A stretch of DNA of 64,000 bases. Source: Giardia intestinalis. Its lineage: Eukaryota. The translations under genes and the position numbers were made by a program. Every line of letters begins with the position of its first letter. Positions within the stretch are counted from its first letter, which is position 1. The DNA is taken from the NCBI GenBank assembly GCA_000002435.2, contig CM018790.1; one strand, 5' to 3'. Below, piece by piece: positions 7,841-52,400 of this stretch. A model generated the notes under the pieces. That model was not told the DNA's origin. It worked only from the letters and a program-made list of their open reading frames with translations, and did not search any database.

Positions 7841-7872
7841 TTCCCACTCAAAAAAGAGGCGACCGGGACTCG

Positions 7873-26103: not shown

Positions 26104-26270
26104 GGTGGGTCAACCAAATAAATGCAGGATCATGTTATGCAATATATTTTAAAAGAAGAAAAAGTATTTGAATTTAAGCTAAATTGCACGAACTTGCTTT
26201 TTCCTCAAAGCCTAATTACAAGAATCTCTTTGGGTCCCTTCAAATCTCTTCAAGGGCTTTCTGGCCATTC
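26104..26270. promoter_or_regulatory. AT-rich divergent intergenic region between the Noc2-like gene (minus) and the cyclase gene (plus); probable bidirectional initiator region.
   Basis: ATATATTTTAAAAGAAGAAAAAGTATTTGAATTTAAGCTAAATT sits between two divergent ATGs. Confidence 0.4.
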
Positions 26271-29200
26271 ATGCAAAAGAGATGCCTTCGCTGCCAGAGG
26301 ACAAGCTTACTTAGTCAAAAGGTAGACGAAATAACCATTTTCTACATACGCGTGACCATGCAGCTAATGGCCATTCAGGCGATCATCATGCACCTGGTTT
26401 GTCTTCCGCCCGTTTTCACCGACATAAAATCGCCGCTCAAACGCACTATGGTTATGGGGTTCCGCATAGTGGACTCATTTTACTGCACCTTCAGTGTCAT
26501 GTACCTCACCCATATGGACACCCATCTGTTCTGCAGTCTGTGCTTCAACCTGTCAGGCGTTGATGCACTAGTGTCAAAGTGCCTTTGTGTGCATAAGAAG
26601 CTAGGTGCTCTAACAAAGGTGTTCAGTGTAGGGCTTCTGATACGTTGTCTGTTCGCAGGTGTGATTGCAGAACAAGTGTCTCCTTCGTCTATAATTACTT
26701 ACTTGATAGAATTGTGCACTCTTCTCTATTCCATGCTGATTGGTATTGTCATTCCAATTCCTCTTGGCATTAAAATGCTCTATTTTTTATTAAGTCAGTT
26801 TCCAATGACAATCTTATCATACAATCTATCTGGCAACTTGGTAATTGTTCCAACACTAATTGCAACAATACTCCTGGTCTCTCTTATTAGCTACTACTTC
26901 GTGTCGTTTTCGAGAAAAAAGAGCTTCTTTTCCATTGAGACCACGCGAAACATGGTTACTATCCTTGGAGGACAGATCATGAACCTCTTTTTGAATGCTC
27001 TCCCCTCACGGCTAGTTCCCAACGTCATGAGCGGTGTCAGAATGGAGCCAACTGTCTGCTTGGATGTGTGCTTTTCATATATCGCAGTAAGCGACGCTGT
27101 CCCTTCCAACCCGGGTTGCCTGGTTGTCAATGCTAAAAATGCCGACTACCAGAAGATAGACGAGTACACGAAGGGCTTTATGAGCCGGCTCAACCTATAT
27201 TACTGTCTCCTGGACTTTTTGTCTGAGTGCATAGGGGTGCAGAAGATTAAATCGACGTACACCCTTTATATGGTAGCAGCCGGGCTTGAAAGCATTCTAG
27301 ATATTAACTATAAAGGCCCTGTCAGCGGCTACCTACTGGGACAGGATGACGACCAGGAGCCACAAGCAGAGCAATTGTTATTACAAACAGATCCGCTGGC
27401 TTATAAATTGCGAGCCGAGAAGCTAAAATTTAAACAGATAGCCACTTTTTGTTTGGCTGCTAGAATAGCAGGCGAGTCTTTGGGGTTTAACGTCTCAGCC
27501 GGAATCACGAAGGGACCTATCATCACGGGAATGCTCGGTCAGGGACAGGCAAATTGCAACTTTGATGTCTGGGGGGACGTTGTCAATATGGCGGCCCGGA
27601 TTGCCCGCGGCTTCAATTCCGGAGTGTTTATTAAGCAGGATGACTTTTATAGCCAGTTGGATGACTCTATAAGTGGCTCATACTGCCGGGCTGCCATTTC
27701 GGAGAGCAGCCTTGACGACGACTACTCTGTGATAGCCTTGAAAAATGACCTTGAGAAAAAAAGACAAGATGTGTCAAAATACTTACCCAGCGAGGATATC
27801 GTTCGACGCTCACGTGAGATTGTCTATAACCTTCCACCGTGCTATATGTTTGGGATGTCGTTTCCGCGTATGTACAAAGGGAAGGCAGGAGTCACCTGGA
27901 TCACCGAGCTGGTTGAGACCGATTATATGCCCTGGCTCTTGAGGCGCACGTTTAGCTTGGCGTACCGCAATCTTCTGCTGTCATATATTTCAGAGGATAG
28001 TCAGCAGACTCTTGGTTTGCCCGCTAACCCTGCGTCTCCTAGGCACCGCGTGGGCCAGAGCATTAAGCAGGGTGCTAATACCGCAGAAGCAAAGCAATTA
28101 GTTGGCATGGAGCTCTTTGAAGCAATAAAACGGAACCTAGGACTGGAGAAGGATGACAACTCACACATTGATAATGCACTCGCTGTTGTCCGTCAGCGCG
28201 ATCAGCTCGATGCTCTTTTGCTTGAGCTTAAGATGTACGTGTGTGATGAGTCTAAAAACGCTTCTAAATCAAGCGTTGTACCCATCAAAGACGATCATCT
28301 AAAGATCCTCAAGAGCCTTAGCACGCTAGCTACACTAGAATCAAGCAGCGCCACCACAAAGCCATATTCCACACAGTCCCCATGTAAGGATCCTGCCACC
28401 TCATCCTCCTTCCTATCAGATAACAGCCTGAGGAGGGTCATCTACTGTGTTTATTCGGGGGACTATTCGCTCCTTGAGCACGGCGGCGAGTTTATCGATC
28501 TGCGGATCTATTTCGGCCTTACAAATTTTCTTTCGCACGTTAATCTTAGGAATGAACCAATGTTTTCCGGAAAGCACCCTATTATGGCTCGTTTGCAATT
28601 TCCAGCCTCTGCAAACCAATTGAATATACTAGAACCGCGCTCTGACAGCAGCGATGATCTATTTGATGGCATTACAAACTCTCAGCTTATGATCGAAACG
28701 ATCTACAAGGCCACAAACGTGATGGTAGACTCTCAGTTCCATAAATCTCATGTCTCATCATCTATTGCAGATTCCTCTCAGCAGCGAGGCGAGGACAAGT
28801 ACAGAAACACGAGCCTGACCCTTCCAAGCTCGTCCCAGGACCTCCATTCAACTATTCGGCAATCGACTGACGGCATCTCCGGCTCAGCCATAAAATCTAA
28901 GGGAAGGTACCGCAAGCCGAACAATCTGCAGATATCACCGTTGCCTGACAGTGCCCCGAACGCCGTGGAGGAGTACTTCTTTGTGCAACCGGATATCAAG
29001 CCTCTGGCCCTAAGTTCATTCAATACTTCGTCTCTACGAATTCCTGAGACCATCCTAACGCCGCGTGTTCTCACCAACCAGCCCAGGCATGACTTTCACG
29101 ACGTTGTCAAGCTGGGTGTGGAGAAAACTCTGCGTAAGACAGCCCGAAATGTTCTAAAGGGGCAGAAATCCTTCAGCAGAACAGGTTCAAATGGGCTGCT

Positions 29201-32200
29201 GCGTATTGAAGAAGACTCTCGCGAGGTTGAAGGGTCGCTAGGCGGCCAACGATCTGAAATTCTGCAACTCCATGACCTAGGACTTACTAAGAGAGGCGCT
29301 AGTGTGAGCAGAGAGACATCTGGAGATGATACGGAGTATTCCCTTGCCAGTATTACGCGACGGTATGCTTCAGGAGAGAGCATAGAGCTCCAGCCCACTG
29401 TGGAGTATACCAAATCAAAGTTGGGAAAGCAGACAGTAGCTGTTGAGAAATCTGCCTCCGAAGAAGTCGGGTATGGGGATGTACAGCACTTTAAGGACTT
29501 TACCTTGATGGATCTGCCCCATCAATCTGGCTTTACTACGTTTGATGACCAGCTAGAAGATAACACGCTGCAATCTACATTGCGATCTTTTGATAAGATG
29601 AATTATTCCTTCAAGGATCTCCTCCCGCCGATTCAAGCTCCTTCAGACAACATGAAAGCTCTTCGGAACAAAACTGAAGCCTCACATGAGAACTCTTGTC
29701 CCGCACTAGTTCCAATAAGACCACTGATTGAAGCGGATACGGAATCTGACAACATTTCTGTGTCTAATGATGACATACACTTAACCGCCGCACAGGGCCT
29801 GTCTCTAGCAACGCCAACAGCTGGAGATCAAAGAGGATCGCCTTTGCCGCACTTTTCTTCGACAACCGGAACTCGTCCTCTGGCACGCTCAAATTCGCAG
29901 CTCCACTGGCAGTCAGAGGATAATGCCAAGACGGCCCCTGCTTTCTGTAGTCGCGCAGACTCCACAGACTCGATAGAACCGACGCACCACCAGTTTTCTG
30001 ATGCGGCTAGGTTCAGCATCTCTAAACCTGCCCTTCAAAAGAGTACCGGCTCCATCAAAGGCGATTCGTTCGCCAGTTCCCTGTTGCAATGCAAGCAAAC
30101 GGGAAAGATTCAGCAGCGTGCCTCGTCTCTCTCTCGCACTCCTCAGCAACAACCGCACCGTATCTATTCCCAGCGATCAACCAGTGTGTCTGCCGAACAA
30201 CGGGTACAGAACTTCTTCACCTTCTTTAATACAAGTGCAACAGCGACCCCGACACCAACCAAGGTCGACGCCGTCAAGAATGCGCTTATTCTGGATTATA
30301 CTCAACTCGAAAGCATGACGGCTCCACAGAATGGTGGCCGGCATGGCCGCTCCGTTTCTTTTCTAGCAAGGCCCAAGTCTTCCTGCCAGTCACGTGACAA
30401 TCAGTCAACTGGGTCCAGCCGGCCTCTGTCTACGCTCACCATGCAGAGAAGCCAGTCCACCCTTGAGAGCTGGAACGACCCAACCAGGGGCACGGTGTAT
30501 AGCAAGACGCCTGACTTCACAGAGCAAGATGCGTCCTTCGATCCGTCGACTACCTGTTCCCGGAACAATCTTGTGGCACAGGAGCTATGCATAGACAAGC
30601 CAGAAAACGACGAGTGCTTTCAGTTTGAGGATTGTGACCGCACTAGTACTAGTATTACTGTGTGTACTAATGGGTATAATGACAGACAAGTCTGCGCATA
30701 CCCCCTTTCACAGGAAAGAATTCCCGTAGGGCTACTTAGCTTTCAAATTCTCTTTGGCGTTCTACTACATATGAGGAGGCAGATTGAGTTACTGTGCAGC
30801 ATCTCCAACTTGATCAGTAAAAGGTGCACTGAGGAGATAGGTTTTGCATTCATGGTCACTGGTATGATGCGTTCTCAGAATTATTGTATTGATTTCTTCG
30901 TCATACTCTTCATGTACATAACTTTTTCAATCATTTTGCGCGTAACAAAATTTAATACTATGGCTGTTATTTTCTTTTTTAACTCGAAAGTCTATTTTTC
31001 CAGTATAAAATTTATATACTGGACGATGCTGGGCATAAATATCCTCTGGCAAATCTCCTTCAGCATCTACTTACGATACTATGATGGAGTTAGGAGAGCT
31101 GTCAAAATTGATTTCGATAAGGCCACTGAACGTGGAGAAAATAGCGACAACCTCGGCCGAGATCTTCTTTTCAACAACGTGGTGATCGGGGTTCGGATTC
31201 TGGTCACGCTCACCACTGTTGTGTGCATCTACCTGATCCAATGTTTCTATTCTATTGGATTCTACTCCGCGCTGAATAATTCCATTAACGAAGAACCAGA
31301 CGCGATGGCGCTATTGATATTTTTCATGCTACCATTTCAGTTCTTCTACGTTGTGACTATCCTCTCTACCACAAGCAACTCCGTCTTCTTCATAAGCTAT
31401 AACTTCATTGCTCTCATGGTAGCAACCCTAGTCTTGGTCATAGCATCCTTCTGTGGGCAGATTGAGGCAGTCCTGGTGAACCTTATCATGTTGATCGCTG
31501 CCTGCATCTACTCTAGCACAAAGCTGAGGATTCGCATCAGCATCCTGGATTGGAAGGCATCTGTCGCCAACCAGATCAAGACGTACAAGGAGAGGCTCAA
31601 CCCCATCCTTCCTGGGATGACAATAGATGTCATGATTGCTGCAAAGCAACCAGAAGCTATCTCGTCAACAGAGGGCGTTTTTCAGTTTATAGAGTGCTAT
31701 ATGCGTGATCTTAACCATATGATATGTCTTGCAGAGCTGGAGAAGGCGTCCCAAATACATAGAGTGGGGTCTACTCCCATCACAGACGCCCCTCATAGCC
31801 GTGTCCCGCCCATAGATTTCTTTGCACTTAAACTAGAGCGTGACCTGCTACCGAACACATCTCCATTTATCTCATCAGACGCTGCGCATGACCCAGATGA
31901 GCCTGGCCTCATCGTGGAGACTGGCCAAAAGAACAAGCACTACTGGGAAGACTTTTGCCAGCAGGCACGTGAGACAATAGAGAGCCGTAGCAAGGAGCTC
32001 TATAAAGGATTTGTATATAACATGCACCAGTACTTGCACTTTAGTGATCCACGCTATCTTTCATACGACAGGCCGATCGTCTATTTTGCTCGAGTGGGGT
32101 ACCTGTCCCTCGACATCGTCAATTTCACAAAGCTGAGCTCAGAGCATGACGCTAAGAGCATCCTTCGGTTCCTTGGAGACCTGTTTTCTGAATTTGACAA

Positions 32201-32843
32201 GAGGATTGATCGCGCGCCGCAGCTGAAACAGATAAAGTCTATTGGTGATGCGTATGAGGTAATGGGGCTTCCAGGCATACTGAAGAAGTATGGTAATGCA
32301 GGAAAGAGGAGGAACAAAGACTCATATGGGCAAAAGGAGGACGATAGAATTCTCCAGCTCTATGATGGTCTGCTTTTGCTGGTCATGGCGGGCTTTGGAT
32401 TCATTGAGGATTGCATAGATGTCAGTAGGAAGCACTTCAGTGACAAGGTAGATTACTTGGGGTTGCGTGTCGGGGTTTGCACGGGCGTGGCCTTTGGTTC
32501 ACTCCTTGGCAGCAAGCAATTCAGATTCGACGTCTTTGGCAACGTCCCCGAAGAGGCGGATTTGATTCAGAGCGAGGCCTCCATTAACGCTATCTTCATA
32601 TCATCGGATGTAAAGAAGATTTTGGAAGAGGGAGAGAGCAAGTGGAAGTCGCGATTCCATGAGTACCAGGTAGAGCAGGAGGCGTTGGGAGTGCAGGCGC
32701 TCGACATCCAACACGAGCACCTTTCCTTTACATTTGTTAAGCACGTGAAGGACTCTGTCACTATGTACGAGGTACAGTCCATTAATGAATCACAGAAGCT
32801 CGATCATCTATATTTTCTTTCAAAACCACTCGATCTATCGTAA
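26271..32843 (+). CDS. Membrane class III nucleotidyl (adenylyl/guanylyl) cyclase. It has two transmembrane clusters, two cyclase homology domains and a roughly 900-aa disordered Ser/Thr-rich linker.
   Basis: The track ORF starts at TTG 26184; the first ATG is at 26271 (26358 is also possible). Hydrophobic cluster 1 is at about 26358..26960. CHD1 is at about 27050..27640 (IKSTYTLYMVAAGL; FDVWGDVVNMAARI). Hydrophobic cluster 2 is at about 30720..31530. CHD2 is at about 32070..32600 (LSLDIVNFTKL; IKSIGDAYEVMG; FDVFGNV). Confidence 0.75.
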   Translation: MQKRCLRCQRTSLLSQKVDEITIFYIRVTMQLMAIQAIIMHLVCLPPVFTDIKSPLKRTMVMGFRIVDSFYCTFSVMYLTHMDTHLFCSLCFNLSGVDALVSKCLCVHKKLGALTKVFSVGLLIRCLFAGVIAEQVSPSSIITYLIELCTLLYSMLIGIVIPIPLGIKMLYFLLSQFPMTILSYNLSGNLVIVPTLIATILLVSLISYYFVSFSRKKSFFSIETTRNMVTILGGQIMNLFLNALPSRLVPNVMSGVRMEPTVCLDVCFSYIAVSDAVPSNPGCLVVNAKNADYQKIDEYTKGFMSRLNLYYCLLDFLSECIGVQKIKSTYTLYMVAAGLESILDINYKGPVSGYLLGQDDDQEPQAEQLLLQTDPLAYKLRAEKLKFKQIATFCLAARIAGESLGFNVSAGITKGPIITGMLGQGQANCNFDVWGDVVNMAARIARGFNSGVFIKQDDFYSQLDDSISGSYCRAAISESSLDDDYSVIALKNDLEKKRQDVSKYLPSEDIVRRSREIVYNLPPCYMFGMSFPRMYKGKAGVTWITELVETDYMPWLLRRTFSLAYRNLLLSYISEDSQQTLGLPANPASPRHRVGQSIKQGANTAEAKQLVGMELFEAIKRNLGLEKDDNSHIDNALAVVRQRDQLDALLLELKMYVCDESKNASKSSVVPIKDDHLKILKSLSTLATLESSSATTKPYSTQSPCKDPATSSSFLSDNSLRRVIYCVYSGDYSLLEHGGEFIDLRIYFGLTNFLSHVNLRNEPMFSGKHPIMARLQFPASANQLNILEPRSDSSDDLFDGITNSQLMIETIYKATNVMVDSQFHKSHVSSSIADSSQQRGEDKYRNTSLTLPSSSQDLHSTIRQSTDGISGSAIKSKGRYRKPNNLQISPLPDSAPNAVEEYFFVQPDIKPLALSSFNTSSLRIPETILTPRVLTNQPRHDFHDVVKLGVEKTLRKTARNVLKGQKSFSRTGSNGLLRIEEDSREVEGSLGGQRSEILQLHDLGLTKRGASVSRETSGDDTEYSLASITRRYASGESIELQPTVEYTKSKLGKQTVAVEKSASEEVGYGDVQHFKDFTLMDLPHQSGFTTFDDQLEDNTLQSTLRSFDKMNYSFKDLLPPIQAPSDNMKALRNKTEASHENSCPALVPIRPLIEADTESDNISVSNDDIHLTAAQGLSLATPTAGDQRGSPLPHFSSTTGTRPLARSNSQLHWQSEDNAKTAPAFCSRADSTDSIEPTHHQFSDAARFSISKPALQKSTGSIKGDSFASSLLQCKQTGKIQQRASSLSRTPQQQPHRIYSQRSTSVSAEQRVQNFFTFFNTSATATPTPTKVDAVKNALILDYTQLESMTAPQNGGRHGRSVSFLARPKSSCQSRDNQSTGSSRPLSTLTMQRSQSTLESWNDPTRGTVYSKTPDFTEQDASFDPSTTCSRNNLVAQELCIDKPENDECFQFEDCDRTSTSITVCTNGYNDRQVCAYPLSQERIPVGLLSFQILFGVLLHMRRQIELLCSISNLISKRCTEEIGFAFMVTGMMRSQNYCIDFFVILFMYITFSIILRVTKFNTMAVIFFFNSKVYFSSIKFIYWTMLGINILWQISFSIYLRYYDGVRRAVKIDFDKATERGENSDNLGRDLLFNNVVIGVRILVTLTTVVCIYLIQCFYSIGFYSALNNSINEEPDAMALLIFFMLPFQFFYVVTILSTTSNSVFFISYNFIALMVATLVLVIASFCGQIEAVLVNLIMLIAACIYSSTKLRIRISILDWKASVANQIKTYKERLNPILPGMTIDVMIAAKQPEAISSTEGVFQFIECYMRDLNHMICLAELEKASQIHRVGSTPITDAPHSRVPPIDFFALKLERDLLPNTSPFISSDAAHDPDEPGLIVETGQKNKHYWEDFCQQARETIESRSKELYKGFVYNMHQYLHFSDPRYLSYDRPIVYFARVGYLSLDIVNFTKLSSEHDAKSILRFLGDLFSEFDKRIDRAPQLKQIKSIGDAYEVMGLPGILKKYGNAGKRRNKDSYGQKEDDRILQLYDGLLLLVMAGFGFIEDCIDVSRKHFSDKVDYLGLRVGVCTGVAFGSLLGSKQFRFDVFGNVPEEADLIQSEASINAIFISSDVKKILEEGESKWKSRFHEYQVEQEALGVQALDIQHEHLSFTFVKHVKDSVTMYEVQSINESQKLDHLYFLSKPLDLS
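27050..27640 (+). other. Cyclase homology domain 1 (C2-like: Asn/Arg of NMAARI present, metal-binding Asp positions not conserved).
   Basis: DVWGDVVNMAARI matches the class III cyclase consensus (YDVWGDTVNVASRM). The position of the second metal Asp reads T in IKSTYTLYM. Confidence 0.6.
32070..32600 (+). other. Cyclase homology domain 2 (C1-like: both metal-binding Asp present).
   Basis: LDIVNFT and IKSIGDAYEV carry the canonical Asp residues. The Asn/Arg region is degenerate (FGNVPEEADL). Confidence 0.6.
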
Positions 32844-32848
32844 AAATT

Positions 32849-34783
32849 ATGACGAGTAAGTCTTCGTTTCGAGCTGAGTGTCTGTTAGACACGCGGGACT
32901 TTCAGGCCATAGCGCATCGCCAGGCAGTGGTGCTGGGCGAGCCCATCCCTTCCTTAGATGAAGGTCTCGAGCGCATTAAAGCAAACATTTTTTTGAATAC
33001 CGAGAAGCCGTCAGAGATCCCCACAGAGAGGCTCATCCGCTACCTCTCTGACGTGTCGCAATGCCTTCAGGCCTTTGTTACTAACTCTACACGGGCTCCA
33101 CAGGTTCTTGCCGGGACGGTAAGACACGTTGACTTCTTTGATAAACTCTATGCATTTCTGCGACTCTTGACTGAGAATGGCCGATATCATGAGCTCCTTG
33201 AAGTTGATGCCGATTCCACGTGTTCTTTCCTGCTTTCTGTTGCCGCTTTTCAGAGTGCATTTGCTCGTGAGCCCATCCTTGGCAATCCGGTGACTAGGAG
33301 TTCTTTCTTGTTTAGTGCACAGTCCTTCTTGCTTACTATCTCTTCTGTCTTGTGCCATTTTCCGCTCAATGTGGACCAGCCCATGTCACACATTAGTGTC
33401 ATCATTGGGGATGGAACCGGAAAACTGGAGGTGGCGCACGTGTTAGTTGAGCATGTGCTTATAGTTTCGTCTGCGTTCAATCTATCTGACTCTGTCTCCG
33501 TACCTGCGCAGTTTTTCCAATGGCTTAACAGAGTACTAGTCCACGTAACACCTCTCTGGTCTGTCGAGAACCTGGAGCACCTTCAGCTATGGCACCAATC
33601 AAGACAGTCCGCGGCGGAGGCTTCGTCCCCAGCGGTACACTTGACAGATGCCTTTCCGTGCATGCTTTTCTCGAGCTTACTGCGCGTCTCCCTGTTTCTG
33701 TATAGTCGGCGAGCTGTGGGCTTGAGCACAGAGACCATTGCGCTCACCATATCTAGTGCTTGTGACCTGGTAGCACAGGTTCTGAACACGATTCAAGCGC
33801 TTCGTAATTTGGCCGCTGACGCGCTGGGTTCTGTCGAGCCTGGACGACGCTCAGCTTGTTCTAGATTGTCTCCAGTTAGCTTTCTTGAAGATGCACAGCT
33901 CTTTTCATTTTTCAGCAAGCTCTGTCTGTGGTGTGTGCGACTGTTGGATTGTCTCATCTCACAGATTTTCAAGCCAGATGGGTTCTCTGCGTGCACATAC
34001 ACAGGTCCACACGGTGATGAGTCACCAAAAGCAAGCGACGCTCCCAGACTTGGCTTGGACGTCTTTACGGAGATGTTCTTCCAGCACAATGGTTGGTCTC
34101 TTCTGATGCAGCTCTTGCACTACACAACTGACGGCATTCTTGACGATCATATGGAACCGCCCGTCACTGAGCTCCTTAGTCAGATTACGCACTGTGCTGA
34201 TATGGGTTGGATCAAAGATCACGGCTACCTCTGCTCAGGCTTTTCAACAAGGCTGGCATATATCCTTGTCAAGAGCCATAGCCGAAATGCAAAGCTTGCA
34301 GCGTTCTACACCCTTTGCAACCTCGTCATCGACCAGGGATATGCGTTCGTGGCGGTAGAGCACGTTATAAGCGCATGTATTAAGAACTTCAAATCCACAA
34401 TTTTGACCGTTGTTTACGAAGCGAACCGCCTCCTTGTGCTTCTGCTCCAACTGGGCAAAGTGGAGGACAGGGATGTCTATCAGACTGCCCTCCTACACAT
34501 GATCAACCAAAAGATAACTTCAAAGCTCATTCGATCTTTCATGATGACTGCCCAGTCTGCACAAACCCATCAGACCCTTCCCAAGGAGTTGCGGAAGCTG
34601 GCATCGATGCAGCTCAAGCTTTTCTCCGAACTCATAGAGTGTGGGAAAGAACACGAAGAGTTTATTACACCTATATTCGAGACGAGAGACGAGCTTTCTA
34701 TAGCAATCGAAGAGCTTGACGTGCGAGGTCCAGAAAGTCTCTCCGTTAGTTGCAGACAGCTCATTGATTTAATTTATATGTGA
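32849..34783 (+). CDS. Hypothetical alpha-helical protein of 644 aa.
   Basis: The ATG at 32849 lies only 5 nt after the cyclase stop. The 3' end overlaps the convergent gene 34761..40043 by 23 nt. Confidence 0.55.
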   Translation: MTSKSSFRAECLLDTRDFQAIAHRQAVVLGEPIPSLDEGLERIKANIFLNTEKPSEIPTERLIRYLSDVSQCLQAFVTNSTRAPQVLAGTVRHVDFFDKLYAFLRLLTENGRYHELLEVDADSTCSFLLSVAAFQSAFAREPILGNPVTRSSFLFSAQSFLLTISSVLCHFPLNVDQPMSHISVIIGDGTGKLEVAHVLVEHVLIVSSAFNLSDSVSVPAQFFQWLNRVLVHVTPLWSVENLEHLQLWHQSRQSAAEASSPAVHLTDAFPCMLFSSLLRVSLFLYSRRAVGLSTETIALTISSACDLVAQVLNTIQALRNLAADALGSVEPGRRSACSRLSPVSFLEDAQLFSFFSKLCLWCVRLLDCLISQIFKPDGFSACTYTGPHGDESPKASDAPRLGLDVFTEMFFQHNGWSLLMQLLHYTTDGILDDHMEPPVTELLSQITHCADMGWIKDHGYLCSGFSTRLAYILVKSHSRNAKLAAFYTLCNLVIDQGYAFVAVEHVISACIKNFKSTILTVVYEANRLLVLLLQLGKVEDRDVYQTALLHMINQKITSKLIRSFMMTAQSAQTHQTLPKELRKLASMQLKLFSELIECGKEHEEFITPIFETRDELSIAIEELDVRGPESLSVSCRQLIDLIYM

Positions 34784-37700
34784 GAATGTTTGATAGCTCG
34801 TCTGCCAGACCATTGCAATCGTAGACAGAAGGCCGGGGGTGTTTTTCCATCAGTATCTTACTTGTGTATTTACGCTTAACAAAACAGTCGTATCCAAGCG
34901 AGATTTTATCGGACTGTAGTTTCGATATGACGCCTGCTTGGAGAATCGCTAGATGGATTGGTTGAATCATGGCACTCTGAGTTGAGACGCCCAACACAGA
35001 ATTAGACACAGCCTCAAACGCAGAGCATGCGTTAAGTAAAGCATTATTTCCTAGCATATAGCTTGTTATGAGGCTGGAGTTGACTGAATAAATTATTGAT
35101 CTGAGGAGAGTACAGAACTGGGGAAACGGATTGCCGTTCATGTCAATCTCTTTAACGATGGAGGTGAGGTAATTGTGATGTCTGGAGGGAGATGTGTCCT
35201 CCTCAGGCCTTAGAGGAGTGCTGTGTGCCTCTCGAAGTGTTGAAAAAGTTGAGATGTCGGGAAAAGTGACCTGCTCGTAAGAGCTTCCATAGTCGGATCC
35301 AGATAGTTGTGTCGACACATAGGTCGTTGACTCTTCTATTCTCCTGCTCTTTCCAATCTTTTCATAAAGCTGCGGCCCCGCGTATAATCCTGTAACTGTA
35401 TTGTGTCCACCACTTCCCTCTGCTGATCCGCAAATATCCACAGGACGCTCAGCGGAGCCCTCAACTGGAGATGTTGGAGAGAGATCCTTGCGGAGTTCTT
35501 CGAGCGTCTTCTGCATGACAGGGTTATCAATGTCTAAACCGGCTGGAGAATCTGCTGCAAGAAGAGAGATTGAAATAGCTTCAGGAGAGAGTTGTATCGG
35601 CCCAGGTATAGAGTTCGATCGTCGAATACGCGGACAAAGCGATTCCAAGAACATGCTATCGTCCATGGAAAGCTCGTCGCTGTTCCCATGGTCAAGAAGG
35701 TTTGCTCCAGGCGAGTCGCTAGCTTTGTTCGCTGTTGGGATATCGTAATTCTCTTGTAGCTGGGAGCAAAGAGGAAATAGCGCATCAATTGTCTTCATTA
35801 GTGTGCACACAGTGGGGTAAAATGCTGGATCAGGTGCGCCATTGATCCCCCCTATTTCTCTGAGAAGTGTTGCAGGCATCAGATAGTCGTCAGAAAGAGC
35901 CGTGCTTGGTGCGCAAGATTCTCGGCCACCTTGGTCACAAATGTGAAAGAGTCCTATGTAGTCCTCTATATTTGGGGTTTTCTTAGTCCGGATTTCGTAT
36001 TCAGGAGGTAATATGACACGCCCTTGGGTACCGTCCGGGGGTTCACAGATAGTCTCAAATGTTTCGTTCTGATTGAGTGGAAGGTGAGTGTTTAGTATGC
36101 GTGTGATGGACGGTAGAACAAGTGGGACGCCTTTGTGAACGGGTAGAACAATGTCCTCCATCCGCTTGTCACGAGATGGGTTTGGACTTCCTTGTCCTGA
36201 GGTGGACCCTGATCCAGGCGGGTTAGTTTGGCCAATGCATGTCTTACTCAACTTCTTGATAAAGCCTCCAATGATAGAGTCGTGATCGTATAGATCTCCG
36301 TCGCCCCTCTCGATGTTACTAGCGTCAGAGCTCATATCTATGATAGATTGCATCCCTGGTAGAGTATATGGCTTGATAGCAACAGATGCTGTTTTGTTAC
36401 TCAGATACGTGTCCAGAGTATTGACGTCCTCGCGTAGCATCGTCTCTGGAACGTACGGGCGGACCTCAATTGGTTGGTGAGAAACAGCATCAAAGGTGCC
36501 TTTGTAGCACATAGAATCGTCAATCAATCCAACAGCAGATGCTTCTGAATCGTGCTGAAGTAGGGCCAAGAGCAGATCTGACTGCTGAGTGTTGTGATAT
36601 GCACTTGGTAGCGAGCCGCTGGGCTCTGCAAAACTGCTCTCTACCCCGTCACTGCCAGGGATCGGTGTGTCTGCAGACCCTTTATAGGATAACATGGCCA
36701 GGGAGCCTCTCTGTATCTTGTCTTCGTAGCCCAAGTGTACACTCAATTTAGAGGAAGGGTCTTTCGAATCCACACTTTCTGCATGCGACTTTTCGTGTGT
36801 CTGAATAATGCTTTCGGTCATCGCTTCTAGATTGCGAGATTGTGTGTCAACCTTAGTAGATGAGGAGAGCGAATTGAGATCCATCTGCTCGGTTTCATTC
36901 TCCTTGCAGCTCTCTTGCATATCTGAAAATATCTTAATGTTGAGACTGTTCTGAGCGGACGGCGGGAGCTTGTAGAATGATTTCGCAAGGTAACGATAGA
37001 TCTCGATAAATGCGTCATCCAATGGTTCAAAGGCCTCAAGTGGGTCTTGCTCCGCTGACTCGGCGTCATCACTTATCCCGAAAGCCCCGGATCGCCGTTC
37101 CTGCTGCATGATATTCTTATAAATATCACCTACCTGAAAGTATCCGTAACGAAAGTTGAGAGATTCTCTAACGAAATCCTGATAAAATGTGTACATGACG
37201 GTATCGTATGCAGAGAAGCTATCATAGTGGTGCATCTTGTTTGTATTTTGAAATATGTATTCATCTATGAGCTCACTTTGAAAATTATCTCCAAGAGTAG
37301 TATCACACAGCAGCTTTCCCATTCCTGCCGCTTCTGGAGCCTGTAGCTCAGTGGACTGCATCGAAATGTCCAGAAGTGAACCGTCTCTAGAGACCGGTGT
37401 TGAACACATGTAGTTGTTCATGAGCTCATGCCGAATGTCGTAAAGCGGTTTATAAAGTACCCTATCAGGAATGAGATCTTCAATGCCTCGGAAGGGAACC
37501 TTTATGGGCGCTACAAGGTCTATTTTCCCCTGGAGATCAGTTAGCACATGGGCTGGGAAGAAGTCAGCTGCAGCATCTTGAAGGATTTCGGTTGCTCGAA
37601 TGCAGTTGCTGAACCCAATGGATGAAAAGGTAGCTTGCATGAGCAGATCACAGTACGATTGGAAGGACTTCTGCGTGTATTCTAACGAGGAAACATGTTT

Positions 37701-40043
37701 GACAGACACGGAACTCAAAGGACTCTTGACCACGGGCTTTTGGGCCCGTAGAAACGCACCGGTCCCATTAACAATCGCCCCCATCATTCCTATTGTCCCA
37801 GCATCAATATTAGTATCGGCACCGGCGCCAGGAGTCAGTGTGTCGCCATAGTACTCGATTGACTTAATCAGAGTCTCATGGAATGCATGCTGCTGTGTCC
37901 GGAAGATACGCTCTCGCCAGGTAGTAAACGAGGAGGTGCGACAGGTTGGGCTGCTACTGCGAGGGAGGTCATACGGATCCACCTGGATGCGGCTTCCCAT
38001 CGCGCTCAGGCACTCGTTGAGCTTTTCTGCCACCACATCATATGGCTTCTGTTCGCGAGTGACAATAAACATGATTATGTTGGCGAGCTGTCTGTGCATC
38101 GACACCTTGTATTCCGAAAGGGTCATGGAGTTTTGAAGAGGCCTGTATATGTTGAGTCCGCATAATAGTTCGCGATACTTCTCTATATGCACATGGGATC
38201 GTACGTGATCGAAGTAGTTCATATAGTTGACGCCACAAACGGCACACTTGCCTCGTGACCTGTCCTCTTGAAGGCCCTCGTCGTTATCCTCTGGTTCGCT
38301 AATCTGGCGCCGATGGGATGCGCTATTCGTATAATCTGCAAGGAAGCGCAGAGGTATTCCGAACTTGTTCAGCGAGGCCACTGAGGAAGCCATTGAGCGC
38401 CGTTTCGAAGATGCCACAAGACCCTCAGAGCTACTTCGTGTCATCTTGTTAATTCTGTGCATGTTTTTGCAGAGATATGTAACAGCATTGATGAGTTGGA
38501 AGGTGGTAAAGGGACGGCCGTTCCGAGGAACAGCGATCACCTTGTCGGGGCAGCGTGCTGGTCGTATAACAATTACATCGTCTGAGTCTCTTGCACGCAG
38601 GCGGGCTATCTCAGACTCGACGCGGTTCTCTGTGGTATCGAAGATAGAGGTGGTGTAGGGTGTCTGTGCGAAGTATGGCAAGGACAATAGCTGATCAGCA
38701 TCTTGCTTGTTGGCTGAGTAGTAGTCATCTAAGAAATAGGATCCTAGCGGAGAGGCCACCAAAGGCGCTCGACTGTCCCACGAGGACCATGTCCTCTTTG
38801 TCCTGGAAAACTCTAATAGGCGGTATCCAAAAACAAGCCCTAGCTCGTCGTAATCCATGATAAGGTCCGGATAGACGCTGGCTATGTCCGGCGTAATAGG
38901 GAGCTTTGAAAAGTCCACATCCGGAAATCCAGATTGATCCTTTTCGACAACCTTTTTATCACAGCAAAAGTCGCGTGGCTTGACTGAGGCTGTACGGGTG
39001 GCTTTAACGTTGGCTAAACTGTCCTTGATTAGCTCCAGGGCGTAGCGCGCCTCATGTATAGCATTGTAATAGATTTTAGCCAGCATGGCAACCGATGCTT
39101 TTACCGTGTTTTCATAGAACGCATACCCTCTGGTCAGTTCTCCCGACAGTTTGATAACGCTTTCTCCTTTATGGATTGCTAGCTCAATGTTTGGCATAAT
39201 CTGAGGAACGGCGACTTGCGGGCGGATGAAAAGCCTGGGAAGCGGAATGTTCGGGATACAGTTGTCTAAATAAAGTCCTACGGGCCGACAATCGTTGACA
39301 TAGTACAGGACCGATGAGGGGTTGTCGCATAGCATAGGAAGCATCTGGATTGGAGTGTACGATTGGTTATTAAGAAAGGTCGGTGGCACGACGGCAGAGA
39401 CGCCGAGGGGGACGTCGCACTTGACAGAATCAGAGAACTGGGGGGCATACAGATGATACATGTCCTGAATGGCAAAGACCATAGAGAGAACCTGTGCACT
39501 ATCTCCACGCATGGCGCTTACGAAAGACATTCCATTGGTTGACGCTGTCTGCACGGTGTGCTGGATCATGGCGATATTGTTTCCAAAAGAGCCTGCAGCT
39601 GACGATGAGTTTGTCCAGCCATTGATAAGCGGTGCCTGAGAAACGTAAGATATGGGCAGACCCAGGCGATTTGCAACGATCTCATTGAACTTCAGCTGGG
39701 CTTTAACGCAGCTATCTATGAGGCTCTCAATAAAGAAATCGGGGACTATCATAAAGGCATAGCCTACAAGCTGCCTCTGCAGCGATTCAGAGATCGTTCC
39801 TTTGCCACTACGAACCACAAAAATCGACCGCGTCGGAAAACAACGCCGGACCGCAGCATCGTCCAGATCGGCTGATGTAATAACAGAAAGGTTAAGTTGA
39901 TGGCACTTTTTGGCCAATTTTGTGCGCTGGAGTGATTGCATATCGTCCGTGAACAAGATAGAATAGTCGACCGCCAGATCAGTTAAGCACCGCGGCGTAA
40001 AATCGCGCGGTGCAGGATTGCAATTGCTGGACGCAATGGTCAT
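34761..40043 (-). CDS. Large 1760-aa protein containing a Dbf4-type (zf-DBF) CCHH zinc finger; possibly a Dbf4/ASK-like Cdc7-regulatory protein with a long extension.
   Basis: ATG is confirmed at 40041-40043. GKCAVCGVNYMNYFDHVRSHVHIEKY (about 38170..38255) matches the Dbf4 motif-C (CxxCxxxYxxxxxHxxSxxH). There are no other recognised domains. Confidence 0.55.
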   Translation of the reverse strand: MTIASSNCNPAPRDFTPRCLTDLAVDYSILFTDDMQSLQRTKLAKKCHQLNLSVITSADLDDAAVRRCFPTRSIFVVRSGKGTISESLQRQLVGYAFMIVPDFFIESLIDSCVKAQLKFNEIVANRLGLPISYVSQAPLINGWTNSSSAAGSFGNNIAMIQHTVQTASTNGMSFVSAMRGDSAQVLSMVFAIQDMYHLYAPQFSDSVKCDVPLGVSAVVPPTFLNNQSYTPIQMLPMLCDNPSSVLYYVNDCRPVGLYLDNCIPNIPLPRLFIRPQVAVPQIMPNIELAIHKGESVIKLSGELTRGYAFYENTVKASVAMLAKIYYNAIHEARYALELIKDSLANVKATRTASVKPRDFCCDKKVVEKDQSGFPDVDFSKLPITPDIASVYPDLIMDYDELGLVFGYRLLEFSRTKRTWSSWDSRAPLVASPLGSYFLDDYYSANKQDADQLLSLPYFAQTPYTTSIFDTTENRVESEIARLRARDSDDVIVIRPARCPDKVIAVPRNGRPFTTFQLINAVTYLCKNMHRINKMTRSSSEGLVASSKRRSMASSVASLNKFGIPLRFLADYTNSASHRRQISEPEDNDEGLQEDRSRGKCAVCGVNYMNYFDHVRSHVHIEKYRELLCGLNIYRPLQNSMTLSEYKVSMHRQLANIIMFIVTREQKPYDVVAEKLNECLSAMGSRIQVDPYDLPRSSSPTCRTSSFTTWRERIFRTQQHAFHETLIKSIEYYGDTLTPGAGADTNIDAGTIGMMGAIVNGTGAFLRAQKPVVKSPLSSVSVKHVSSLEYTQKSFQSYCDLLMQATFSSIGFSNCIRATEILQDAAADFFPAHVLTDLQGKIDLVAPIKVPFRGIEDLIPDRVLYKPLYDIRHELMNNYMCSTPVSRDGSLLDISMQSTELQAPEAAGMGKLLCDTTLGDNFQSELIDEYIFQNTNKMHHYDSFSAYDTVMYTFYQDFVRESLNFRYGYFQVGDIYKNIMQQERRSGAFGISDDAESAEQDPLEAFEPLDDAFIEIYRYLAKSFYKLPPSAQNSLNIKIFSDMQESCKENETEQMDLNSLSSSTKVDTQSRNLEAMTESIIQTHEKSHAESVDSKDPSSKLSVHLGYEDKIQRGSLAMLSYKGSADTPIPGSDGVESSFAEPSGSLPSAYHNTQQSDLLLALLQHDSEASAVGLIDDSMCYKGTFDAVSHQPIEVRPYVPETMLREDVNTLDTYLSNKTASVAIKPYTLPGMQSIIDMSSDASNIERGDGDLYDHDSIIGGFIKKLSKTCIGQTNPPGSGSTSGQGSPNPSRDKRMEDIVLPVHKGVPLVLPSITRILNTHLPLNQNETFETICEPPDGTQGRVILPPEYEIRTKKTPNIEDYIGLFHICDQGGRESCAPSTALSDDYLMPATLLREIGGINGAPDPAFYPTVCTLMKTIDALFPLCSQLQENYDIPTANKASDSPGANLLDHGNSDELSMDDSMFLESLCPRIRRSNSIPGPIQLSPEAISISLLAADSPAGLDIDNPVMQKTLEELRKDLSPTSPVEGSAERPVDICGSAEGSGGHNTVTGLYAGPQLYEKIGKSRRIEESTTYVSTQLSGSDYGSSYEQVTFPDISTFSTLREAHSTPLRPEEDTSPSRHHNYLTSIVKEIDMNGNPFPQFCTLLRSIIYSVNSSLITSYMLGNNALLNACSAFEAVSNSVLGVSTQSAMIQPIHLAILQAGVISKLQSDKISLGYDCFVKRKYTSKILMEKHPRPSVYDCNGLADELSNILTYKLNQ
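38170..38255 (-). other. Dbf4-type zinc finger motif (CCHH).
   Basis: CAVCGVNYMNYFDHVRSHVH was read directly from the minus-strand translation. Confidence 0.55.
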
Positions 40044-40087
40044 TGGGCTGCTCTCCTGTTTCCTATTAAATTGTTTTAGTCCTTTCT
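40044..40087. promoter_or_regulatory. A 44-bp divergent intergenic region serving two genes (34761..40043 minus and RPC25 plus); AT-rich initiator-like.
   Basis: TTCCTATTAAATTGTTTTAGTCCTTTCT lies between two ATGs 44 bp apart. Confidence 0.45.
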
Positions 40088-40735
40088 ATGTTCATAAGCC
40101 TACAAGTAATTGACACAGTCCGGGTGCCCCCGTCGTCACAAACACGGTACTTAGAAAGCAAGCTTCTGGAAATTCTTACAGCCAGCTTCTGTGGACGCGT
40201 CTTGGCCAATTGTGGCATATGCCTACTCATCGAAAGAATCACTAATCTCAGCGAGCAGAGGATTGTGCATAATGATTGCAACACATACGTGACTGTTTGC
40301 TTTTCAATCATCGCGTTTCGGCCCTACATTGGGGAAATCTTTACAGCATTTCTTGTCAGTCAACACCCTATGCACGGACTTGCCCTCAGCACTGGGTTCT
40401 GTGACACGATCATTGTACCACCTTCCAACCTTCCAGAATATCTTATGTGGAATAATGAGCGTCAGGGCTTTACTAACTTACCCGACTTCGAATCAGAACT
40501 AGACTTTGAACTCGGGGGTGAAATTAAGATCAAAGTGGTGGACGTCATCTTCAGAACGAATGAGGATACTACCAGCATGGGGCTTGGGAATGCTCTAGAG
40601 GGGGAGGAGCTGTCCCAGGACCTTATCGGCTCGTGGGGAGCAATAGTTAATAGCAAGAGTAAGTTTATAGTAGTAGGGAGCTGTACGGGGCCTGGGCTGG
40701 GTGATGTTCGATGGTGGCGAGAAGATGCAAATTAA
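40088..40735 (+). CDS. RPC25: DNA-directed RNA polymerase III subunit RPC25/Rpc8 (POLR3H; Rpb7-like).
   Basis: MFISLQVIDTVRVPP resembles human POLR3H MFVLVEMVDTVRIPP. FRPYIGEI, FCDTIIVPPSNLPE and the C-terminal VVGSCTGPGLGDVRWW resemble VGSISEPGLGLLSWW. It is 215 aa. Confidence 0.8.
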   Translation: MFISLQVIDTVRVPPSSQTRYLESKLLEILTASFCGRVLANCGICLLIERITNLSEQRIVHNDCNTYVTVCFSIIAFRPYIGEIFTAFLVSQHPMHGLALSTGFCDTIIVPPSNLPEYLMWNNERQGFTNLPDFESELDFELGGEIKIKVVDVIFRTNEDTTSMGLGNALEGEELSQDLIGSWGAIVNSKSKFIVVGSCTGPGLGDVRWWREDAN

Positions 40736-43105: not shown

Positions 43106-44131
43106 TTACTTTGCTTCCTTTGTATTAAGAGTTAGCGCCTGCGTTACCACAGTCTCAATCATCAAGGACACCCCGTAGAAGCGATCCTCTTGCGAGTATT
43201 TGCGCCTTATGTATCTGGCCTTCGGGTTACAAGCGTATTTCTTCATGATCGTAGAAATCTCCGCCATAACCTTTTTTGTATCGCTCTCAGTGTATCCAGA
43301 ATACTTTTCGAGGGTTTCGTCCCAAGTCGGCTTCCGAGTCAATCTACGGGACATCGCAATGCAGCCTGCCGCAATCTCGCTAGGCTTAAATTTGAAGATA
43401 CTTGTCGTCAGACACGAGAGTTCAGAGATATAAAATGCAATGTAACGGTCTCGATTCTTCATTTCCGAAATTCTGGCATACCTTCGTAGGAATGTGAGAA
43501 TTGTGGGCATAGCCAGCTGGAAATCCAGCGTATGCAGGATAGATTCTTCCGTATCTATTATAGCTTCGCGACTGCACCTGTAGCACGGTCCCGAACGGTT
43601 ACCCTCGCACTTACAATTGACGAGGAATTCCGGGTCGACCTGGGTCAGCGCCTCCACAAAATGCCTAAGTGAAGGAATATAGCTTTGCTCGTACTTTGCT
43701 GCAATGAAAAGACAGCAAATGCCAACAAGTCTGTTAGAGGCCTTGGGTACTACCACGCGAGAAAGATAACTGTCAAAAATCGCTATGCAATGAAAGAAGC
43801 TCTCGTTGGCCAAATTGAAGCGTGTGTGACACCTAGAGATCCAGTCAACAAGTAGCGTGCGGTCCTCTGCATCAAAGTCTATCTGGTTCGACAAAAAGTC
43901 CGAACCAAGCATGTACTTACCCTCAGACTGAAGTAGGTACTCATATATCTCTCTTACGTATTCTGCGCACGCCTGGATATCATCCTTATCAATCAAATCG
44001 ATGTCGAGAATGTCCGTTTCTTTATCGGGGTTGGCGTGCCTGAAGTTAATCAAGGCCTGTGGCATCTCCTCGACATTGTCTACCGGCTGCTCGAATGTGT
44101 GAACGCTCTGGGATTCGTCGTCTAATGGCAT
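43106..44131 (-). CDS. Mitotic (A/B-type) cyclin.
   Basis: The cyclin box RTLLVDWISRCHTRFNLANESFFHCIAIFDSYLS...LVGICCLFIAAKYEQSYIPSL resembles MRAILIDWLVQV...LQLVGVTAMFIASKYEE. It is 341 aa, and ATG is confirmed at 44129-44131. Confidence 0.85.
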   Translation of the reverse strand: MPLDDESQSVHTFEQPVDNVEEMPQALINFRHANPDKETDILDIDLIDKDDIQACAEYVREIYEYLLQSEGKYMLGSDFLSNQIDFDAEDRTLLVDWISRCHTRFNLANESFFHCIAIFDSYLSRVVVPKASNRLVGICCLFIAAKYEQSYIPSLRHFVEALTQVDPEFLVNCKCEGNRSGPCYRCSREAIIDTEESILHTLDFQLAMPTILTFLRRYARISEMKNRDRYIAFYISELSCLTTSIFKFKPSEIAAGCIAMSRRLTRKPTWDETLEKYSGYTESDTKKVMAEISTIMKKYACNPKARYIRRKYSQEDRFYGVSLMIETVVTQALTLNTKEAK

Positions 44132-49429: not shown

Positions 49430-52400
49430 TCATGGCAAATTATAGTGGCTAAATGCTGACGGAGGCAGGTCAAAACAGTGTGCCAAAATGCGAGATATGC
49501 TTCCCAAAGCATTGATCTTCATTTCCGTTTCGGTTTTTCCTTCGGGAAGTGAAAGAACGTGTCTGACTATCGCCTCTGTCAGGGGTGAGCTATACCGTTT
49601 TGTCAGTGTCTCTCTATCTATTTGCGATAGAGACTGGATTTGTAGGGCGCGGATAACTTCCAGCAATATGAGCGCAGCGGGTACCTCATACATTGGCCCA
49701 GAGGCCACCAGGACTGTAAGGATCCTCACAGCCTCGTCTGTGTGTAAGGAGCGAACTCCTTCTTTCAGCAGGCTCTGGGTAGAAACCTCGACAAGGTGCC
49801 GAGCAGTGGGCAGTTGAGTGCGTAGCTTGCTCTTTCTTTCCAAGAAGTCGTCGGGAAGGTTCGAGAGAGACTCGACTGCAAGTAGCGCAGTGACAACACC
49901 TTGGAAAGCAGTGTTATAGAGAACGTCAATGAAGTCCCCAAAGAGCTCCATAAAAGAAAGCTCACACTTCGCTCGAAGAAAGATAATTCGCAAGATCTCC
50001 ACGGAATAGATGACACTACGCAGGAACACCTCGTTATGAGACGGAGATGGACCCCACAGATATAAGATAGGATGGTTCAGCGGAAGCACCTTCTGGCTTT
50101 CAGGGGAAGTATTGATTGGCAGGTTAAGCCTGTCTTTAGGGTTCACAAGGGCCGTGAATGCATCAATACAGGTGCACATCTCTATTATGTAGGTGTACTC
50201 ATCGTCATAGTAGTACACATCACGAATGCAACGCGAGACGACCTCTTCTGATAACAGCGACGCAGAGTAGCTAGTGCTAGGGAACTCAATCCTCTGGACA
50301 TTGCACTGTATCTCAGAATTATCTGGGTCAGAAGAAAAGCCTTGAATCAGCGAAATGTATTGAGCGTTCAGTTTTGGAGCCGAAGGGTGGCTTTGGAGCA
50401 GCTCGTGCACTATTGCATAGGCATCGTCTTGGATCCTCTCAAATGTATTAGTATACACCTTCTCATACTGTAAGCACTTGTTTGGCATCAGCGTTGGATG
50501 AATATGGCCATTGGTTTGCGCATAGACCTTCCAGGACACAGAGTGAGATCGTCTAGCACCGGAGAAATCACTCACGGTGATAGCGAGTGTGTGCGTAACA
50601 ATATTGAAGAGAAGACGAGACAGAAGCCTTTTGCGCTCCTTATTACCAACTGTCTTTCTCGATATATGAACAACCGTGCTTGTGATGGCCTTTGGAACGC
50701 TTTCGGTCTCCGTCAGCGATAGACTAGAGCGGCCCTGAAGCATCTCTATCTTCCCATCCTGCTCCAACCAAAGAAGAAGCGAGCGCACCACGCGTATAAG
50801 GGAGTTGAAGTACTGTTTTCCAGTAGGTGGAAAGTGGGAAGCCAAGCGGTGACAGGAGCCGAGGAGAAAGAATCCTGAATAGAGTAGGGTGCGGATATCT
50901 AGAAGTAGGAGACTCGCAATGACCTTTCCTATGGTTACAATGGTTAGACGGCCGTGACTCTTACCCATTGGCGTACACATACTGACAGGTGCGTGATGTT
51001 CTAATATCAGATATGTATAAAATGCCACAATGCACTGCTGCATCAGCACGTTTCGAGACTTCTCCAACGCCTCCCAAGCGGTGTTGATTGACGTTTCCCG
51101 AACCAGAATTGCTGAGTTGACCAGAAGACAGAGCAAATGGTCGACAGCTTTTATTTCATTGAAGTGTGTGCTTAGTAAGAAGTTAAAGTGATTAGTATAA
51201 TAAAATCTATCCCTTGGCGAGGCATTTGTCAGGAGCCTCGACGTTGCAATTCCATCATTTTCGACCCCGTCAACGCTGGTGGGTAGCTTGTACTTGCTTT
51301 GAAGGGTTGAAGAAATAAAAGAGACGAATCTGTCAATGATGTACCTGAGTAAGGGCAACTGCGCATATATTGCAGGCGAGATGACGTGCGTAAGAACGGA
51401 GTCGCGTGCTTCAATAGATTTGATGCTGTATATGTTGAAACACAGAGGATTCGGTAAGTCTAGCTCCGGTAGCGTGTGTGTCATGTTGACGCTGATGCTG
51501 CTAGGGCAAGTGAGGTCCATAGATTGCTGCTTGGTATTGGTGGAAGAGGCCTGCCCTTCACAGACAGTGCCCATTGTGGATGACGTCTTATCATCCACGA
51601 AAACAACATCAGCAAGGGCTCTACTTTTACGGGCGCCTTTTGCCGGAATATTTGACTCAGAGCCGGCAAAGTAACCTGATTGAGGAACAACCGGCTTTCG
51701 GCTGATGCTATTATTTCGTTTCTGGGGGTTCACGCAGGGGGGACTGCTACCGGCATAGTTCAGGGGCAAGGAGCAATCTAGCGCTAACACACAAGCGGAA
51801 AGAATTAGGCGATTAATGAACTCACTGTCCAGATATCTGAAGCCGAGGACCTTATAAATCTCTACACAAAGGTCTTGACGCTGTACCTTATTGGTGTTTT
51901 GCCTATCCAACTTACGTGTGTCAATGATGTACTCCAATAGCTTATCTATTTTATTGCTAAACTCGGTACGTTGATATTCCACTATTTTGGTGTGCAGCAA
52001 ATCTGTGCTCGTAAGACCGTGCTGAATGAGAAATGATAGAGCATGCCGGCGAGCGTCCTTAGCCGCCGGTGCCTGAGGATCCTGCTGCACACCGTTGTAC
52101 AGCAATGAGTAGAGGGCTGGGAGAGACGCTGCGTTAGCCGTGGACACAAACTGCAGCGCGTTAGTCATAAATGCATCTTGATCGAGAAGATAATCACTCA
52201 CCACAGAGGCAGGAAGCTGACTGTGAAGATTGACATAGAGTAGCTGACTAATCATCTTCCTTGTTTCGATGTCGTCACTTTCATCCGCTTGATAATCTTG
52301 GATCTTGATCGATTGATTGCTTGAGGGGTTCCCGGAAAGAACACTGTGTGTGTCCGCAATAGCTGAGCTTCCCAGGCCCTTTGGGTCCATATAAATGAGT

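Follow-up and report, generated by a model that had tools for sequence, protein, structure and literature searches.

Introduction

In eukaryotes, origin firing is set off by two kinases, one of which is the Dbf4-dependent kinase (DDK), formed by Cdc7 and Dbf4. We analyzed a stretch of 64,000 nucleotides from the Giardia intestinalis genome (assembly GCA_000002435.2, contig CM018790.1; this whole stretch is hereafter called the window), in which the gene GL50803_0089552 encodes a 1760-aa protein that we consider a candidate Dbf4. An earlier note on the same DNA, drawn from the letters alone, had proposed a Dbf4-type zinc finger in this protein and a possible role as Cdc7 activator, and its interpretation is supported by the analysis reported here.

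In the classification of Matthews and Guarne, as summarised in PMC9796610, Dbf4 proteins fall into class I (fungal), class II (human DBF4), and class III (insect). Saccharomyces cerevisiae Dbf4 (class I; PDB 3qbz and 7pt6_9) has a long linker of ~350 residues between motif M (residues 260-309) and the zinc finger of motif C (at ~660), and the finger lies at the extreme C-terminus. In human DBF4 (class II; PDB 4f99_B and 6ya6), the M-C linker is short (~60 residues). Drosophila Chiffon (class III, 1695 aa) carries its Dbf4 motifs in the N-terminal part, followed by a long C-terminal extension with motifs of its own (PMC9796610). The N, M, and C motifs of Chiffon lie within 350 residues, and its extension binds Gcn5 and forms the CHAT complex, so that Chiffon provides a precedent for a Dbf4 with a second function.

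A single CDC7 kinase, GL50803_112076, has been reported in the Giardia kinome (PMC3218828; see also PMC5091913). In the table of Salas-Leiva 2021, Cdc7 is listed for nine fornicate genomes, among them those of two Carpediemonas species, three of Giardia, and those of Kipferlia, Spironucleus, and Trepomonas, as well as for Trichomonas, and the Dbf4 row is empty for every fornicate, Trichomonas being the only metamonad listed there (PMC8516963). The supplementary text of that study suggested that Dbf4 is maybe accessory (PMC8516963).

Results and Discussion

GL50803_0089552 as a candidate Dbf4

We propose that GL50803_0089552 is a highly divergent Giardia orthologue of Dbf4 that would act as the activator of Cdc7, with a probability of roughly 60%. 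It is the best candidate for this activator in Giardia and would be a previously unrecognised, divergent member of a known family. The corresponding open reading frame (ORF) matches exactly GL50803_0089552 of G. intestinalis WB clone C6 (UniProt D3KGM7), which is annotated as 'hypothetical protein' in NCBI and UniProt. Literature searches with the gene identifiers, and with Giardia in combination with Dbf4 or zf-DBF, returned no paper mentioning GL50803_0089552. The gene and the three elements most relevant to its identity are as follows:

34761..40043, minus strand: candidate Dbf4 gene, 1760 aa plus stop, from the ORF list and its translation
39663..39986, minus strand: predicted BRCT-fold domain, residues 20-127, candidate motif N (H-BRCT), with a short helix (residues 20-26) before strand 1
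39219..39482, minus strand: proline-rich block, residues 188-275, the best conserved block and candidate motif M, with the core FAIQDMYHLYAP followed by LCDNPSSVLYYVNDCRP and PLPRLFIRP
38163..38267, minus strand: Dbf4-type zinc finger, residues 593-627, candidate motif C, with the pattern ED-x3-GKC-x2-C-x3-Y-x-NY-x2-H-x5-H-x3-Y-x3-L

A protein family found in fornicates

An exhaustive HMMER profile search with residues 1-880 over 1.84 billion representative proteins resulted in a total of 33 matches. The family spans Fornicata and includes proteins of Giardia, Spironucleus salmonicida, Hexamita inflata, and Aduncisulcus paluster, which is Carpediemonas-like. Giardia and Spironucleus are both listed with Cdc7 in Salas-Leiva 2021, and Hexamita and Aduncisulcus were not sampled there. 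Orthologues are present in every Giardia assemblage, with 70-99% identity, and the relatives have 27-30%.

All full-length members share a common layout. The N block (RDFxPxxLxELxxDY ... RSIFVV) is followed by hQDxxHxYAP and then by LCDDPxxPWFYhNDCRP...PRLhIRG; next come DDVIhIRP...GRxxTT, in the long forms only, and (R)DKY...EED..G-C-x2-C-x3-Y-x-[NS]-Y-x2-H-x5-H, which contains the zinc finger. The long forms add further blocks as well as RxNSIPGP near the C-terminus. Two short proteins of Aduncisulcus paluster, GKT24491.1 (402 aa) and GKT22281.1 (364 aa), belong to the same family (profile E 5e-11 and 4e-10, respectively) and are both labelled 'DBF4-type domain-containing protein' in UniProt. 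They have in common with the Giardia protein the N block, IHIQDxxHxYAP, PWYYVDDCR, the DKY element, and the finger; unlike the Giardia protein, they have no DDVI block, no post-finger block, and no C-terminal extension at all. A further match, P0042 (587 aa, on a JGI/IMG contig of 14 kb), is encoded by G+C-rich DNA and is rich in Ala, Arg, and Ser. Besides the finger, it carries the N block, the M-like block, and a WRR block, and it may stem from Carpediemonas or another free-living fornicate related to it.

A divergent Dbf4-type zinc finger

The CCHH core of the finger, CAVCGVNYMNYFDHVRSHVH, corresponds to residues 600-619 of the translation (38187..38246, minus strand), that is, within the region 38170..38255 where a Dbf4-type finger had been predicted, and it is conserved in 22 homologues. 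Its C-x2-C-x9-H-x5-H spacing is the same as in human and yeast Dbf4 and is invariant in the fornicate family except for three members with x10. This spacing and a conserved aromatic residue following the second Cys, both of which the finger has, are expected of motif C. Six positions (G598, C600, C603, Y610, H613, and H619) are invariant across the 22 homologues, at identities down to ~20%. In an alignment of the Giardia orthologues (70-99% identity) with two relatives (27-30%), the invariant positions are E593, D594, G598, K599, C600, C603, Y607, N609, Y610, H613, R615, H619, Y623, and L627. H617 varies in this alignment, and the zinc ligands are therefore assigned to C600, C603, H613, and H619. 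The prediction of a Dbf4-type CCHH finger in the earlier note thus stands; H617, the first His of 'SHVH', is not conserved and is not among the ligands.

In a hypothetical protein of this length and low complexity, Cys and His might in principle fall into such a pattern by chance, given that many motifs were scanned by eye and that the HMM score of the single sequence is weak (E 0.065). This explanation is effectively refuted by conservation: neither the ligands nor the residues next to them vary among 22 homologues of 20-40% identity, and family-level matches to Dbf4 are significant. Moreover, the C-x2-C-x9-H-x5-H pattern is expected only 0.0005 times per shuffled copy of the 1760-aa protein, and in the 64-kb window, translated in all six frames, it is seen a single time.

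When the finger was isolated as a 62-aa fragment, zf-DBF (PF07535) was the sole Pfam family matched, with 13.7 bits (E 0.065). At the family level, 20 of the 22 finger fragments matched zf-DBF at E<=0.1 (best 2e-6), and no other Pfam family was matched by more than three of them. Relatives scored 17.9-23.7 bits, the Aduncisulcus pair reaching 23.3-23.7 bits, and one family finger, P0045, scored 28.1 bits and thus exceeded the zf-DBF gathering threshold of 24.8 bits. P0045 is a 48-aa ORF on a Logan contig of 137 kb, and the Giardia-family profile matched this ORF at E 3.7e-4; it may belong to the fornicate family or represent one exon of a canonical Dbf4 in some other eukaryote.

The profile built from the 22 fingers was also compared with 177,635 PDB sequences. 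The first three ranks were occupied by human DBF4 (4f99_B, E 5e-4) and yeast Dbf4 (7pt6_9 and 7p5z_G, E 6e-4), and the alignments to both the human and the yeast fingers were gapless. In a direct hhalign comparison with the human DBF4 finger, the family gave 86% probability (E 5e-6), and the alignment, which reached upstream to include a common DKY element, covered the CCHH core.

Behind Dbf4 in the same ranking came U1-like fingers, namely ZFHX4 (2yrk), Snu23 (5nrl_L), and ZNF622 (6lqm_0), at E 0.006-0.011, and ZFHX4 ranked first when a shallower profile was used. These matches raise the alternative of a nucleic acid-binding C2H2 finger of the U1-like or matrin type, in a protein of RNA or ribosome biology rather than replication. 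We regard it as highly improbable. The C-x2-C-x12-H-x5/6-H spacing of U1-like/matrin fingers is not that of the family, which has x9 (x10 in the three members noted above); the alignment with ZFHX4 requires a three-residue insertion between the second Cys and the first His, whereas that with Dbf4 is gapless at x9. In addition, Pfam families of U1-like and other C2H2 fingers were matched by at most one of the 22 members, versus 20 of 22 for zf-DBF, and the predicted BRCT fold at the N-terminus points to chromatin and replication. On sequence grounds, the finger is a genuine, although divergent, zf-DBF.

A predicted BRCT fold at the N-terminus

An AlphaFold2 model of residues 1-145, calculated from 17 diverse sequences, has a mean pLDDT of 80 and a pTM of 0.71. 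The order of its elements is helix(20-26)-b1-a1-b2-a-b3(SIFVV)-a2-b4(FMIV)-a3, with SIFVV and FMIV as predicted strands at residues 73-77 and 96-100, respectively. The BRCT-like block that had been suspected around SIFVV is hence recovered as part of a BRCT-fold model. In a structural comparison of this model, the H-BRCT domain of Dbf4 was among the best matches. A Foldseek search of the model against the PDB gave nothing at E<=0.001, the hits being mixed small alpha/beta folds with BRCT among them, and the N-block profile found no Dbf4 or BRCT match by sequence in the PDB or Pfam. According to the model, the N-terminal block of GL50803_0089552 is a BRCT fold, which places it with motif N. Another AlphaFold2 run, on residues 1-880 with seven sequences, had a mean pLDDT of 36 and served for an impression of secondary structure only.

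A candidate motif M and the order of the elements

Residues 161-320, between the BRCT domain and the finger, are the best conserved part of the family, with 90% identity between assemblages A and B. Within the block at residues 188-275, Q, D, H, P, and R are near-invariant in the family alignment. Its core FAIQDMYHLYAP (residues 190-201; 39441..39476, minus strand) aligns in register with the motif M cores of human (VKVEDMSQLYRP) and yeast (VYLYDLWQTWAP), both of which were checked against PDB chains, but this similarity is not significant (hhalign P 0.18 with human, 0.054 with human plus yeast). A regular expression derived from the human and yeast cores, written after the alignment had been seen, matches the Giardia protein once, at residue 190 (0.002 matches expected per shuffle). 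The same post hoc expression has no match in 16,324 aa of other window ORFs and matches nine of the 19 family members at the homologous site. Two protein searches with human and yeast finger fragments as queries recovered only seven and one short fragments, so that no diverse Dbf4 profile was available for motifs N and M. The suggestion that residues 188-275 represent motif M, the proline-rich segment with which Dbf4 binds Cdc7, is a lead and not a result. As for the search for motifs N and M that the earlier note had suggested, a BRCT fold is predicted in the place of motif N, and a candidate core of motif M is aligned in register only (P 0.05-0.18).

If the M assignment holds, the three elements are collinear: the BRCT domain (residues 20-127) precedes the M-like block (188-275), which is followed by the finger (598-627), an order that is found in all full-length family members.

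Cdc7 activator or chromatin scaffold

Several results weigh against the identification of GL50803_0089552 as Dbf4. The full-length 1760-aa protein matches no Pfam family at E<=10, a phmmer search with it against the PDB gave no meaningful match, and even the isolated finger, at 13.7 bits, lies far under the PF07535 cut-off. The match covers only positions 3-26 of the 45 in the zf-DBF model, which means that the post-finger helix of canonical motif C has no recognisable equivalent. In the PDB ranking, the U1-like fingers are close behind Dbf4. The M-block profile has no sequence match in Pfam or the PDB, and no significant similarity to Dfp1_Him1_M or to Dbf4 chains. Finally, a literature search found no interaction, localisation, or expression data for GL50803_0089552.

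The lack of a zf-DBF HMM hit was what the earlier note had named as refutation, and for the full-length protein this is formally the outcome, with a sub-threshold match for the fragment. In a lineage that has diverged this far, we consider the test too strict, and it is overridden by the evidence at the family level (20 of 22 fingers).

An alternative is a large chromatin or DNA-damage scaffold of the ZDBF type, which would combine a BRCT domain and a finger of zf-DBF fold without regulating Cdc7; fornicate Cdc7 would then work alone or with an unrelated partner. ZDBF2 and orphan zf-DBF proteins likewise have a zf-DBF-type CCHH finger in a long, otherwise unannotated protein. Such a scaffold would be in line with the match of only the CCHH core and not the C-terminal half of the zf-DBF domain, with the Giardia score under the Pfam gathering threshold, with a motif M that is not significantly detected, and with the more than 60% of the protein that consists of lineage-specific conserved blocks without a counterpart in Dbf4. 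To our knowledge, however, ZDBF2-type proteins lack an N-terminal BRCT domain and a motif M position, whereas a BRCT fold is predicted upstream of the finger in Giardia.

We think this scaffold somewhat unlikely and favour the Cdc7 activator for three reasons. First, a BRCT domain followed by a zf-DBF finger is the architecture of Dbf4, and both occur here in that order. Second, the short Aduncisulcus homologues of 364-402 aa are reduced to three elements, namely the N block, the M-like block, and the finger, and thus resemble a minimal Dbf4. Third, fornicates have Cdc7 and no other recognised Dbf4; every fornicate in the table of Salas-Leiva 2021 has the kinase, and none has another Dbf4 candidate there (PMC8516963). 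Moreover, conservation in the family is highest in the M-like block, which would be expected of a kinase-binding surface.

If the Cdc7-Dbf4 structures of human and yeast are taken as a guide, the finger of GL50803_0089552, as motif C, would clamp the N-lobe of Giardia Cdc7 (GL50803_112076), and the block at residues 188-275, as candidate motif M, would tether the protein to the C-lobe, the two together turning the kinase on. The BRCT domain might dock the kinase on chromatin or on partners bound to MCM, upon which MCM subunits would be phosphorylated and origins would fire.

Linker and C-terminal extension

About 400 residues separate the candidate motif M from the finger, and ~1140 residues lie downstream of the finger, close to the ~1100 aa of extra C-terminal sequence estimated before. 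Three conserved blocks were recorded in these regions:

38496..38582, minus strand: conserved block DDVIVIRP...GRPFTTFQ, residues 488-516, in the M-C linker, in long family members only
37911..37979, minus strand: family-specific block DPYDLPRSSSPTCRTSSFTTWRE, residues 689-711, ~70 residues past the finger
35598..35624, minus strand: conserved RRSNSIPGP, residues 1474-1482, in the C-terminal extension, R-x-N-S/T-[IV]-P-G-P in most long family members

The first block is missing from the 364-402 aa Aduncisulcus proteins. It had been considered for motif M on account of its 'GRxPF', which resembles yeast GRCPF, and was set aside because of this absence. In the second block, ten positions are invariant (D689, D692, P694, R695, S698, P699, C701, F706, W709, and R710); it also occurs in the sequences P0027, P0051, and P0042, is missing from the short Aduncisulcus proteins, and has no match in Pfam or the PDB. 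The third, near the C-terminus, is found in Giardia, Spironucleus, and further long relatives. It is a putative 14-3-3 and basophilic-kinase site, fitting the 14-3-3 mode-1 consensus RSxpSxP.

Compared with yeast Dbf4, GL50803_0089552 is alike in the gapless C-x2-C-x9-H-x5-H finger, in the long M-C linker (~350 versus ~400 residues), and in the register of the candidate M core, with the reservation on significance given above. It differs in the residues after the finger, which are ~1140 in Giardia and begin with a different conserved segment, H-x3-Y-x3-L, in place of the yeast post-finger helix ENDLNFEAIDSLI; there is also no sequence-detectable similarity between yeast Dbf4 and the Giardia BRCT domain or candidate motif M. 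Human DBF4 resembles the Giardia protein in motif C, where the DKY element and the CCHH core are aligned, and in the register of the M core, where the similarity is again not significant. Unlike human DBF4 with its short linker, the Giardia protein is 1760 aa long and has the additional conserved DDVIVIRP...GRPFTTFQ block between M and C. Chiffon is of similar size and also has its long extension after the Dbf4 motifs; the two extensions arose in distant lineages and are likened here by layout, and the Giardia extension has no Pfam match. The long M-C linker of fungal Dbf4 and the extension of insect Chiffon mean that size is no argument against a Dbf4 identity. The linker and the ~1100-residue extension of GL50803_0089552 are lineage-specific additions.

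A more far-reaching reading, which we consider unlikely and offer only tentatively, is that the fornicate protein forms a fourth Dbf4 class, combining a long M-C linker of the fungal type with a giant C-terminal extension of the insect type, whose modules (DDVIhIRP...GRxxTT, D.PR..SP.C.T..F..WRE, PFRGIEDLIPD, and RxNSIPGP) would give it a second job. This job may be the targeting of DDK to origins or MCM, where the initiation machinery is pared down. Alternatively, it may be a coupling to 14-3-3 or kinase signalling that replaces the cell-cycle-regulated degradation of Dbf4.

Neighbouring genes in the window

The ORFs of the window are tightly packed and intron-less; an adenylate/guanylate cyclase, a cyclin, and the RNA polymerase III subunit Rpc25 are among their products. 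Rpc25 is encoded by a divergent gene (40088..40735, plus strand) that lies only 44 bp from the ATG of the candidate Dbf4 gene (40043..40088), and the two genes must therefore have a very short promoter region in common. At its 3' end, the candidate Dbf4 gene overlaps by 23 bp (34761..34783) with a convergent ORF of 644 aa (32849..34783, plus strand), which has no Pfam match. A canonical cyclin gene (43106..44131, minus strand), with Cyclin_N and Cyclin_C domains (E 8e-29 and 7e-25, respectively), is located two genes away from the candidate Dbf4 gene; this nearness is probably coincidental. In an ORF of 2219 aa (26184..32843, plus strand), the catalytic domain of adenylate/guanylate cyclases is matched close to the C-terminus in two stretches, the best of them at residues 1970-2164 (E 2e-31). 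The listed start of this ORF is a TTG, and the true start is probably a downstream ATG. Two giant ORFs, 7747..18702 (plus strand, 3651 aa) and 49430..63115 (minus strand, 4561 aa), have no Pfam match at E<=0.001.

Implications

With GL50803_0089552 and its orthologues, the apparent loss of Dbf4 in fornicates becomes a testable case of extreme divergence. A Dbf4 identity would widen the known architectural range of Dbf4. It would also close a gap that has been reported in the replication-initiation toolkit of Giardia and open DDK function there to direct tests, although some Cdc7 partner could be anticipated in any case. Should the candidate prove wrong, another mechanism of activation would be required for fornicate Cdc7, which would itself be of interest. 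Giardia Cdc7 has been considered among further targets that bumped kinase inhibitors may have (PMC5091913), and GL50803_0089552 provides a concrete candidate partner for this kinase in work on the Giardia cell cycle.

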